From Candidatus Melainabacteria bacterium 17Bon1m (lineage in GTDB: Bacteria > Cyanobacteriota > Vampirovibrionia > Obscuribacterales > Obscuribacteraceae), in assembly GCA_032128875.1 (NCBI GenBank), contig JAVLKG010000004.1, positions 64,001 through 128,000 of the forward strand: DNA of 64,000 bases, read 5' to 3'. The notes under the pieces are model-generated. The model made no database searches. It worked only from the letters and a program-made list of their open reading frames with translations, and had not been told where the DNA came from. Below are positions 33,228 through 34,706 of the stretch, piece after piece (within the stretch, counting starts at the first letter, position 1; each line of letters begins with the position of its first letter). A program made the translations under genes and the position numbers.

Positions 33228-33538
33228 GTTTGTTTCCGCCCGTTTGTCTGGATTTGCCGTTAGTGGCTGTTTTGCCACCGCCATATTGTCCCTTGTGAGA
33301 GCAAATATGGCATTAGACGGGCTTTCAGCAACAAGTTTCGTTTATTAAATGTCTGAAAGCGCCAGAGTACTAGCATTTGCGAGAATGTGCCTATATCGGG
33401 TACATATGTATTATCGGCGCCGAGATTTAATCTTTTCTGGGCTCGAAATTTTGAACTTTTTTGTCACTGGATACGTATTCAAAGATATGACCCCCCTGAC
33501 GGGCATGTATCCCTTCCACATCTGGAGCCAGTCAGTTG

Positions 33539-34606
33539 ATGAAACGAAATCTCTTAAGCCTGGCTGCGTTGGCGCTTCTAGCGATACCGCAAGCTAATGC
33601 TGTGCCCTTGATTAAGGGCGATGAGGCCTCTTACCGAGTAAGAGAGCTCTCTACAGGAATGAATTGGTACACCAATCTGCCGATGGCGCTTCAAGAAGGC
33701 GCACGTACCGGCAAGCTTGTTGTTTGGATTCATATGTTGGGCAAAATCGACGGCGCCACTTGAAGTGCCGGAAATTCGCTGAGAGCCGTGTCGCTCTCGC
33801 AGGAACCAGCTTTCTCTTATTTGAAAGATAATTTTGTAGTCGGATACAAGGACATTACCGGTGCATCGTATGCAGGTGTGTCCGGGGTCCACATGCCCAC
33901 CGGCAATGCGGTGAGCACGACCAACGGTGCGGGTCCGCATAACTTGCAGACATTTGTTCTTGCACCTGATGGCACTGTTATGACTTGCCTGCCTGGCTAT
34001 TGGTCGCCACAGGATTTGGTCTCTGAGCTAAAACTCGGACAAGATATCTACAAAGTCTGGAATGACAGATATTTGTCGAAAGCTGAAAAGGACGCACGCT
34101 TCCGGCAGATGCAGCAAGATCATTTCCGCACCCATTCGCCTCAAGAGCAAAGAAGAAGCCGCATGCAAGGTTTTGACATGAAGTACGAAGCGAAAAATCG
34201 TTTGCAGACTTCAGATTGCATTCTTGATTCTCGAATGGCCAGCGTTGTTCTGCAAAAGGGCATGAAAGCACCACCGGGCGCATTCAAGACAACAGATCAA
34301 ATCATGCACGACCGCATGAGCCAAAGACCGTTTTTAAACTACCAAAATTTTGATGTGGTTGCATACACGGACTACGGCAGACCCTTCTACAACAAGAATG
34401 AGGACCAGCGCACTGCCAGTGGTGAGGTCAATAAAGATCTCGCAAGAGCGCAGCCTCTTATGGGGAATGTCAATGAATTGCCCGGAGCTGCCAAACGAGC
34501 ACGCAGACAGCAACGGCAACAAATGGCCGGCTCAAGGATGATGAATCGCGCCGGCGGCTATCTTGCAAGAAGAGGAGTTCAGACTTTCGTGCGCGCAATG
34601 CGCTAG
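33539..34606 (+). CDS. Predicted exported selenoprotein with thioredoxin-like (selenoprotein N-like) core; in-frame TGA at 33761-33763
   Basis: ORFs 33536-33763 and 33788-34606 are in the same frame, separated only by one TGA. Read-through gives GKLVVWIHMLGKIDGAT-U-SAGNSLRAVSLSQEPAFSYLKDNFV; signal peptide and downstream hairpin present. Confidence 0.78.
33775..33805 (+). promoter_or_regulatory. Candidate bacterial SECIS element
   Basis: TTCGCTGAGAGC-CGTGTC-GCTCTCGCAGGAA; loop starts 24 nt after the UGA with G at loop position 2. Confidence 0.65.
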
Positions 34607-34613
34607 CTACACC

Positions 34614-34662
34614 GTAGGGTGGCATATATGCCGCCCTGTGCAGGGAGCCGCATGCGGCTCCC
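34614..34662. repeat. REP doublet
   Basis: GTAGGGTGGCATATATGCCGCCC followed by GGGAGCCGCATGCGGCTCCC. Confidence 0.85.
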
Positions 34663-34706
34663 TTTCGCGTGCAACGAAATGCCGTCATTTGTTAGACTAT
34701 CTAGCT

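Follow-up and report, generated by a model that had tools for sequence, protein, structure and literature searches.

A probable exported selenoprotein with a thioredoxin-like fold, encoded across an in-frame TGA, in a non-photosynthetic member of the Cyanobacteriota

The window analysed here, a stretch of 64,000 nucleotides (nt) from a contig of Candidatus Melainabacteria bacterium 17Bon1m (JAVLKG010000004.1, positions 64,001–128,000), carries on its forward strand a frame of 355 codons (33539–34606) that opens with ATG, closes with TAG (34604–34606) and is interrupted once, by the TGA at 33761–33763, as seen alike in the sequence, its translation and the list of open reading frames (ORFs). 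Under genetic code table 11 this frame is split into two ORFs in the same register, the first at 33536/33539–33763 (74/75 codons) and the second at 33788–34606 (272 codons, GTG start). When TGA is translated as selenocysteine (Sec, U), the joined product has 355 residues, with the N-terminus MKRNLLSLAALALLAIPQANA, U at residue 75 in the context GKIDGATUSAGNSLRAVSLSQEPAFSYLKDNFV and, later, LQTFVLAPDGTV; this translation reproduces the peptide quoted in the first-pass annotation of the window, which had proposed a hidden exported selenoprotein resembling eukaryotic selenoprotein N. We consider it very likely that 33539–34606 is a single, complete gene for an exported selenoprotein of ~36 kDa, as indicated by the single frame and by full-length orthologues that each contain one TGA. 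All features described below lie on the same forward strand.

A six-frame search recovered the family in 25 of 41 related genomes, and 68 of the 72 matches listed from these genomes contain exactly one in-frame TGA, the other four being fragments without coverage of residue 75. In each of the 30 loci extracted, the TGA stands within the motif G-x-T-U-S-A-[GA]-N-S-L-R-A-[VG]-S-L-S, with conserved coding sequence upstream. A wider scan of species-representative genomes picked out 301 stretches; a relative is encoded by 282, and in all 80 of the loci kept, down to ~45% identity, TGA occupies the Sec column, as it does in all 90 distinct proteins among 110 pooled loci. Conserved residues lie on both sides of U75 (T74, S76, A77 and N79–S87, with W43, A50, G68 and G72 further upstream), and T74 is found in at least 97% of the 90 distinct proteins. 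Twenty-four continuous distant homologues, chosen for matches that span residue 75 and not comprising every such match (P0255, for example, was omitted), carry Cys at the Sec column in 18 cases, W in two, A in two, S in one and P in one, the A and P carriers being very divergent. TGA or Cys at this column in homologues that continue across the site is what the first-pass annotation had named as support for its proposal.

In four public runs, contigs covering the locus are identical to it at 33761–33763; two of these runs (X9 and X10) belong to other studies, and the presence of the same TGA in contigs of two independent studies disposes of the sequencing error that had been raised as a possible refutation. 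Gene callers using table 11 do return two ORFs, as would be expected were the TGA a true stop, arising either by nonsense mutation in a decaying gene or as the end of the first of two small genes. However, both halves are conserved as protein in one frame, the stop-like codon never leaves its column in the 80 loci, distant homologues run through the site with Cys, and a product of the second ORF by itself would have neither signal peptide nor strand β1 nor active site, so that we regard the chance of a genuine stop as negligible. The consequence for databases was anticipated in the first-pass annotation, which expected pipelines to divide the gene into two hypothetical proteins: among the best 120 of 380 homologue matches, nearly all entries are 230–299 aa long and cover 60–77% of the query, while N-terminal pieces of 74–102 aa end at residue 72–74 (P0170, P0266, P0258, P0265, P0269 and P0250). 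Recognition of the family corrects a systematic annotation error, in that the database entries seen for it are either a truncated half or a mistranslation.

Immediately downstream, at 20 nt from the first base of the UGA, begins a hairpin in which nt 21–26 (GAGAGC) pair with nt 33–38 (GCUCUC) around the loop CGUGUC. In window coordinates the upper helix is formed by 33781–33786 and 33793–33798 and the apical loop by 33787–33792, with a bulged U and further pairs beneath; we annotate 33775–33804 as a bacterial Sec insertion sequence (bSECIS) element from its folding, its freeze of synonymous sites and the published bSECIS model. That model, as given in the accessible text of PMC13188914, has a loop of 3–9 nt, an upper stem of 4–16 bp, G in the first two loop positions, a UGA-to-loop distance of 16–37 nt and a minimum free energy of −7.5 kcal/mol or lower, and the hairpin lies within these bounds: its stem of 6 bp carries a 6-nt loop with G in second place and U in third, 23 nt separate the loop from the UGA, and the fold has −11.6 kcal/mol. 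Across the 30 distinct loci, synonymous entropy at codons +8 to +11 (GCC GTG TCG CTC, each four- or six-fold degenerate) is 0, 0, 0 and 0.35 bits, compared with ~1–2 bits at comparable flanking codons. A paralogous family with adjacent Cys and Sec, hereafter CU-type (17 loci, 25% protein identity), has a hairpin at the identical offset (GAGAAC-CGUGYU-GUUCUC) while encoding different residues over it (motif R-F-C-U-T-N-A-R-L-A-R-T-V-L-F-S), and pair 25–34 changes in compensatory fashion from G-C in 30 sequences to A-U in the 17 CU-type sequences. Over these 47 sequences, 97.3% of cells are paired, against 29.5–56.8% when the 3′ partner is slid by 1–3 columns. Taken together, the synonymous freeze and the CU-type hairpin with its compensatory pair show that the hairpin is under selection at the RNA level.

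Rare variants in the wider sample retain a stem with CGUG in the loop. In one of them (L126), three codons are changed, one of them non-synonymously, and the sequence forms a register-shifted 6-bp stem that keeps the CGUG loop and folds at −6.5 kcal/mol in a 30-nt test. The 7.55-Mb genome contains exactly three copies of the pattern TGA-N17-hairpin, one in each paralogue; a fourth similar hairpin, at C1:191605, was rejected as a selenoprotein site, having neither an in-frame TGA nor an open frame. The near-invariant SECIS (GAGRGC-CGUG-...) provides a simple probe for further members of the family.

The genome also encodes the means of decoding such a site. A genome search returned selA (497 bits), selB (286 bits), selD (370 bits, without an internal TGA) and a tRNA-Sec with anticodon TCA (67.5 bits), each above its curated cut-off, and a tRNA-SeC was likewise called by ARAGORN; all four of the genes selA, selB, selC and selD, the absence of which the first-pass annotation had listed as grounds for abandoning its proposal, are therefore present. 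Among the related genomes, selA is above cut-off in 20 of the 25 that bear the family, with one further copy truncated by a contig end, and is missing from 14 of the 16 that do not, including all three from the same taxonomic family (G013, G016 and G024), a co-occurrence that is to be read as a pattern and not as a statistical test because the genomes are kin. G028 and G034, which belong to another family of the class, have selA above cut-off and lack the selenoprotein family, and Sec decoding in the class is thus not tied to this family alone. FdhA above cut-off was not found in the 17Bon1m genome, nor was the VPGUxxT selenoprotein family, the control for which search also matched nowhere. 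With FdhA unfound and SelD free of TGA, the window gene and its two paralogues are the only selenoprotein genes identified, in searches that did not include a general scan of the selenoproteome.

TGA could in principle be read as a standard amino acid, either as Trp or Gly (codes 4 and 25) or by near-cognate read-through, and W does appear at the column in two database proteins, P0122 and P0139 (P0139 unchecked). P0122, however, is near identical to the product of locus L043, the DNA of which has TGA, so its W is an artefact of gene calling under another code. TGA is also an ordinary stop in this genome, where 901 of the 3,546 frames that reach 300 codons or more end in it, that of the neighbouring GGDEF-HD gene among them; continuous homologues carry Cys and not Trp, and a SECIS-type hairpin is accompanied by a full set of Sec machinery. 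We give a standard amino acid at residue 75 only a very slight chance. The sequence evidence instead makes us all but certain that selenocysteine would be inserted at this position through SelB, which, charged with Sec-tRNA(Sec), would bind the hairpin and direct insertion at residue 75.

Residues 1–21 (33539–33601) are predicted from their sequence to form a signal peptide, with a basic n-region (MKRN), a hydrophobic core and A-N-A before VP. Similar signal-peptide-like N-termini occur in all 30 extracted loci, and the predicted local distance difference test (pLDDT) score over residues 1–20 is ~50. From this N-terminal sequence we infer export to the periplasm, where, after cleavage of the Sec-type signal peptide, the mature protein would act.

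No family in Pfam (E up to 1) or NCBIfam matches the window protein. An AlphaFold2 model built on a 35-sequence alignment (pLDDT 88.1, predicted template modelling score 0.81) assigns residues ~31–175 (33629–34063) to a predicted thioredoxin fold of the DsbD-gamma/AGR/DsbH clade, with UAS-type and DUF255/DsbH-type thioredoxin domains among the structural neighbours. In the model, U75 lies between the strand at residues 60–66 and the helix at 76–85, which places the Sec codon (33761–33763) at the N-terminus of helix α1 after strand β1, in keeping with its conservation and with the alignments. In alignments of the family profile, U75 falls opposite the leading Cys of CPYC in the Thermus thioredoxin 2lst and opposite the single Cys of CPHS in AGR2, both at weak E values (0.02–0.2), and U75 accordingly takes the nucleophile position of thioredoxins in the predicted structure. 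Other searches returned less: a PDB search with the single protein sequence gave only a chance-level match to a blue-copper domain (E 0.37), a search of the protein atlas with the Cys homologue P0045 gave only unnamed cyanobacterial clusters and Thioredoxin_7 clusters at a score of 0.77, and the Pfam models Thioredoxin_7 (PF13899) and Thioredox_DsbH (PF03190) scored 13–21 bits in distant relatives and the CU-type paralogue, below the cut-off of 27, with the window protein itself matching neither. A ~30-residue insertion precedes strand β3, at the site where the cis-Pro loop lies; its residues N129-G-A-G-P133 and N135 are each conserved in at least 97% of the 90 distinct proteins, and the window protein has His134 within this N-G-A-G-P-x-N loop.

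The redox motif T-U-S-A-G (U-x-x-G) has no CxxC partner, and we therefore propose a single-selenol oxidoreductase. On the strength of the modelled fold and of the position of U75, we regard it as reasonably probable that the enzyme would work by attack of the U75 selenolate on an oxidised envelope substrate, whether a disulfide, a sulfenate or a peroxide, and that either Cys150, from the adjacent active-site loop, or an external thiol would then resolve the resulting Se–S or Se–OH intermediate. Cys150 (33986–33988) lies in the loop after strand β4 (CLPGYW). This loop is one of three that frame the thioredoxin active site, and thioredoxin-fold topology would accordingly bring Cys150 close to U75. 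The residue is present in 87 of the 90 distinct family proteins, which agrees with its earlier nomination, as the distal Cys of VMTCLPGYW, for the role of resolving cysteine. A second cysteine, Cys101, occurs in 69 of the 90 and is Val in the genus of the window.

The conserved C-terminal domain (residues 176 to ~300; 34064–34438), helical in prediction and ~125 residues long, gave no structural match. H118, H195, H199, D253 and H257 are each conserved in at least 97% of the 90 proteins. Two of the pairs that they form, H195/H199 (34121–34135) and D253/H257 (34295–34309), have i,i+4 spacing on predicted helices of this domain. These His/His and Asp/His pairs hint at a metal site, and the domain would probably provide substrate or metal binding to the oxidoreductase. 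They also invite a different proposal, in which Sec75 and the His/Asp residues together bind a metal or metalloid (copper, mercury, selenium or similar) and the protein serves as a Sco-like periplasmic chaperone or detoxifier. Thioredoxin-fold metallochaperones exist, and a lone selenol without a CxxC partner would suit such a role as would the conserved pairs; but no metal-binding family in Pfam or NCBIfam was matched, Sco-type structures are absent from the top 50 structural matches and the near-invariant Cys150 fits a resolving cysteine, which together make the metal role unlikely. Beyond this domain, the gene ends in a variable basic tail (34439–34603), an R/Q-rich predicted helix that is poorly conserved and modelled at pLDDT 48–77.

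A number of observations weigh against an exported single-selenol selenoprotein, bearing variously on its hairpin, its decoding and its chemistry. Within the family the helix is nearly invariant, its changes amounting to six G-U wobbles and a single break, none of them a double compensatory change; because it varies so little, within-family covariation is not demonstrable, and the covarying pair 25–34 is one evolutionary event drawn from the comparison of two paralogue families. The whole 76-nt fold is no more stable than its shuffles (z −0.49), the SECIS signal being carried by the local hairpin only, and a scan of the window at Rfam gathering thresholds gave no family. Rfam covers bacterial SECIS elements poorly, which makes this last result unsurprising. 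In the remaining four family-bearing metagenome-assembled genomes (MAGs), which are 64–93% complete, selA was not found. Two runs recorded as RNA-Seq (X2 and X3) carry the locus on contigs of 31–34 kb and are for that reason uninformative on transcription; they appear to hold genomic DNA or to be mislabelled. Val replaces Cys150 in three of the 90 distinct proteins. Lastly, the neighbourhood offers no functional clue, with no conserved gene partner across the loci examined.

In the window, the neighbours include a hybrid kinase, a GGDEF-HD protein, an asparagine synthase, an MPG glycosylase and VanZ, among others, and among ten ORFs that flank the gene at eight divergent loci are one for a TPR protein, two for TyrRS and others for permeases, Usp and a PGAP1-like protein. 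Directly 3′ of the stop codon, a stretch of ~47 nt (34616–34664) contains the palindrome GGGAGCCGCATGCGGCTCCC. It is matched on both strands by many other contigs in each run, at a summed depth of 60–208 compared with 9–23 for its flanks, and looks like a dispersed repeat of the repetitive extragenic palindromic (REP) or terminator type.

Records carrying the family are titled Candidatus Obscuribacterales, Obscuribacteraceae, Obscuribacter (including Ca. O. phosphatis) or Melainabacteria, with a few MAGs labelled otherwise, and among the genomes sampled the family is confined to non-photosynthetic cyanobacteria of the Obscuribacterales type. Loci labelled Planktothrix, Drouetiella or Oculatellaceae (L090, L097, L105, L114, L115 and L130) and others labelled Proteobacteria bacterium (L096, L106, L108, L116, L125 and L132) nevertheless hold the gene with its TGA. 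These MAGs contain several copies of the Obscuribacterales-type gene, and the bins are probably mislabelled or mixed. Sec decoding was not detected in the cyanobacterial phylum according to the accessible part of a 2006 survey, Cyanobacteria appear only for an orphan SelD in the portion of a 2016 survey that was available (PMC5029168), and they are not mentioned in the available text of PMC13188914. A search of the literature on Melainabacteria and Obscuribacter, supplements lying outside it, returned no relevant report of selenoproteins or selenocysteine. The expectation that Sec use in this lineage would be of note is upheld to the extent that it is unreported in the searchable literature. 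Our results put Sec decoding in the non-photosynthetic Obscuribacterales, a branch within the cyanobacterial phylum, and with at least 282 loci in species-representative genomes, and up to five matches per genome, the family is a well-supported addition to the bacterial selenoproteome.

The two paralogues in the 17Bon1m genome share the SECIS geometry of the window gene. One (C11:87524–88387; L053:1513–2805) encodes 431 aa with the motif G-Y-T-U-S-A-A, has the loop CGGGUC and carries a longer C-terminal extension; the other (C6:273236–273595; L054:1296–2636), of the CU-type, encodes 447 aa with adjacent Cys and Sec in F-C-U-T-N-A-R. Relatives of the CU-type branch in Cys form (P0251–P0381) are ~410–530 aa long, have the motif S-C-A-N-S-R-F-F-R and match no Pfam domain, and Cys forms are abundant in photosynthetic Cyanobacteria (Nostoc, Leptolyngbya, Microcoleus and Calothrix), Acidobacteriota and Verrucomicrobiota.

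The paralogues bear on whether the window protein belongs to a bacterial selenoprotein N (SelN) family, acting as an extracytoplasmic reductase of over-oxidised cysteines. SelN, in the accessible text of PMC12839072, has a lumenal thioredoxin-like motif, S-C-U-G, with an EF-hand calcium sensor and a single-pass membrane anchor N-terminal to the redox domain, and its variants p.Sec462Arg and p.Arg466Gln are pathogenic. A general design is common to both, in which Sec takes the redox position of a thioredoxin-like domain that lies outside the cytoplasm in SelN (PMC12839072, same text) and is predicted to do so here. A link would gain from the C6 paralogue, in which Cys and Sec are adjacent and Arg stands at U+4, from the UAS-type and DUF255/DsbH-type domains among the structural neighbours, and from further positions after the Sec that may agree with SelN. 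In contrast, the window protein itself has T-U-S-A-G in place of S-C-U-G and Asn at U+4, and no EF-hand or other Pfam domain was found in it. No protein named selenoprotein N occurs among the best 120 of 380 and the best 120 of 1,026 homologue matches, no SelN chain is among the PDB sequence, structure and profile matches or the protein atlas matches, and no open frame with S-C-U-G exists in the genome. A genome scan for C-U-G, S-C-U and C-U-x3-R left only the C6 paralogue as credible, the 15 other matches looking non-coding. The literature searched held nothing linking SEPN1 with a UAS domain, and the 12 papers listed on bacterial SELENON crystal structures dealt only with selenoneine and chemistry.

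Of the SelN-like redox protein put forward in the first-pass annotation, the probable exported thioredoxin-like Sec protein stands, while the specific resemblance to SelN is not supported, SCUG motif and EF-hand being absent; the SelN label is not established, and we think membership of a SelN family doubtful. Similarly tentative is a broader scheme in which the window gene and the C11 and C6 types are three branches of one large, unnamed superfamily of exported thioredoxin-like proteins, a prokaryotic sister or root of animal SelN with the CU-type nearest to it. This superfamily would then sustain the whole Sec machinery of Obscuribacterales, where neither Sec-FdhA nor Sec-SelD was found, within a phylum for long believed not to decode Sec. 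Were the SelN link true, it would give tractable bacterial models for a human muscle-disease protein of poorly understood catalytic mechanism. For the single-selenol oxidoreductase that we favour, the T-U-S-A-G site and the unmatched domain with its His/Asp pairs form a target for new periplasmic redox or metal chemistry.

In comparison with SELENON, the window protein is likewise a thioredoxin-like selenoprotein, one whose short redox motif contains Sec and which would face an oxidising compartment outside the cytoplasm, insofar as the accessible text of PMC12839072 describes it. It differs in lacking both SCUG and the EF-hand, in having a predicted cleavable signal peptide where SELENON has a type II membrane anchor, and in its C-terminal domain. 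Eukaryotic SECIS elements lie in the 3′ untranslated region, whereas that of the window gene is inside the coding region. The fold modelled for the window protein is of the same kind as those of DsbD-gamma, AGR2/AGR3, ERp19, DsbH and UAS domains, but these are Cys proteins at 7–19% identity, and the ~30-residue insertion before strand β3 sets the window protein apart. VPGUxxT proteins (NF041382/NF041383; 'OS_HP5') resemble it in being thioredoxin-like, of similar size and with Sec early in the fold, and theirs are the only selenoprotein models to give any signal (19.4 and 17.8 bits for the CU-type paralogue and 12.1 bits for the C11 paralogue, with cut-offs of 350 and 275); the window protein itself does not match them, and the motif is VPGU in that family as opposed to GATU or FCU here.

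Nearest in kind are the bacterial thioredoxin-fold selenoproteins. Table 1 of PMC13188914, a review of May 2026, gives domain models for 119 prokaryotic selenoprotein families; as far as its available text extends, T-U-S-A-G is the motif of none of the 119, and no match was found to those that have a Pfam or NCBIfam model, the families to which the scan extended, others being listed by cd or PANTHER identifiers only. The Sec forms of thioredoxin, thiol:disulfide interchange protein and DsbG-/DsbA-like proteins, in the same available text, share with the window protein a Sec at the nucleophile position, Cys homologues, a SECIS hairpin in the coding region that conforms to the consensus model and dependence on SelA, SelB, SelC and SelD, and several are exported. 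They differ from it in motif, which is U-x-x-G here and UxxC or CxxU there, and in their Pfam and NCBIfam models, to none of which the window protein belongs, while the window protein adds a conserved C-terminal domain of ~125 residues and comes from a lineage outside the surveys consulted. The family is apparently uncatalogued and of a known kind, that of the bacterial thioredoxin-fold selenoprotein with its SECIS element inside the ORF.

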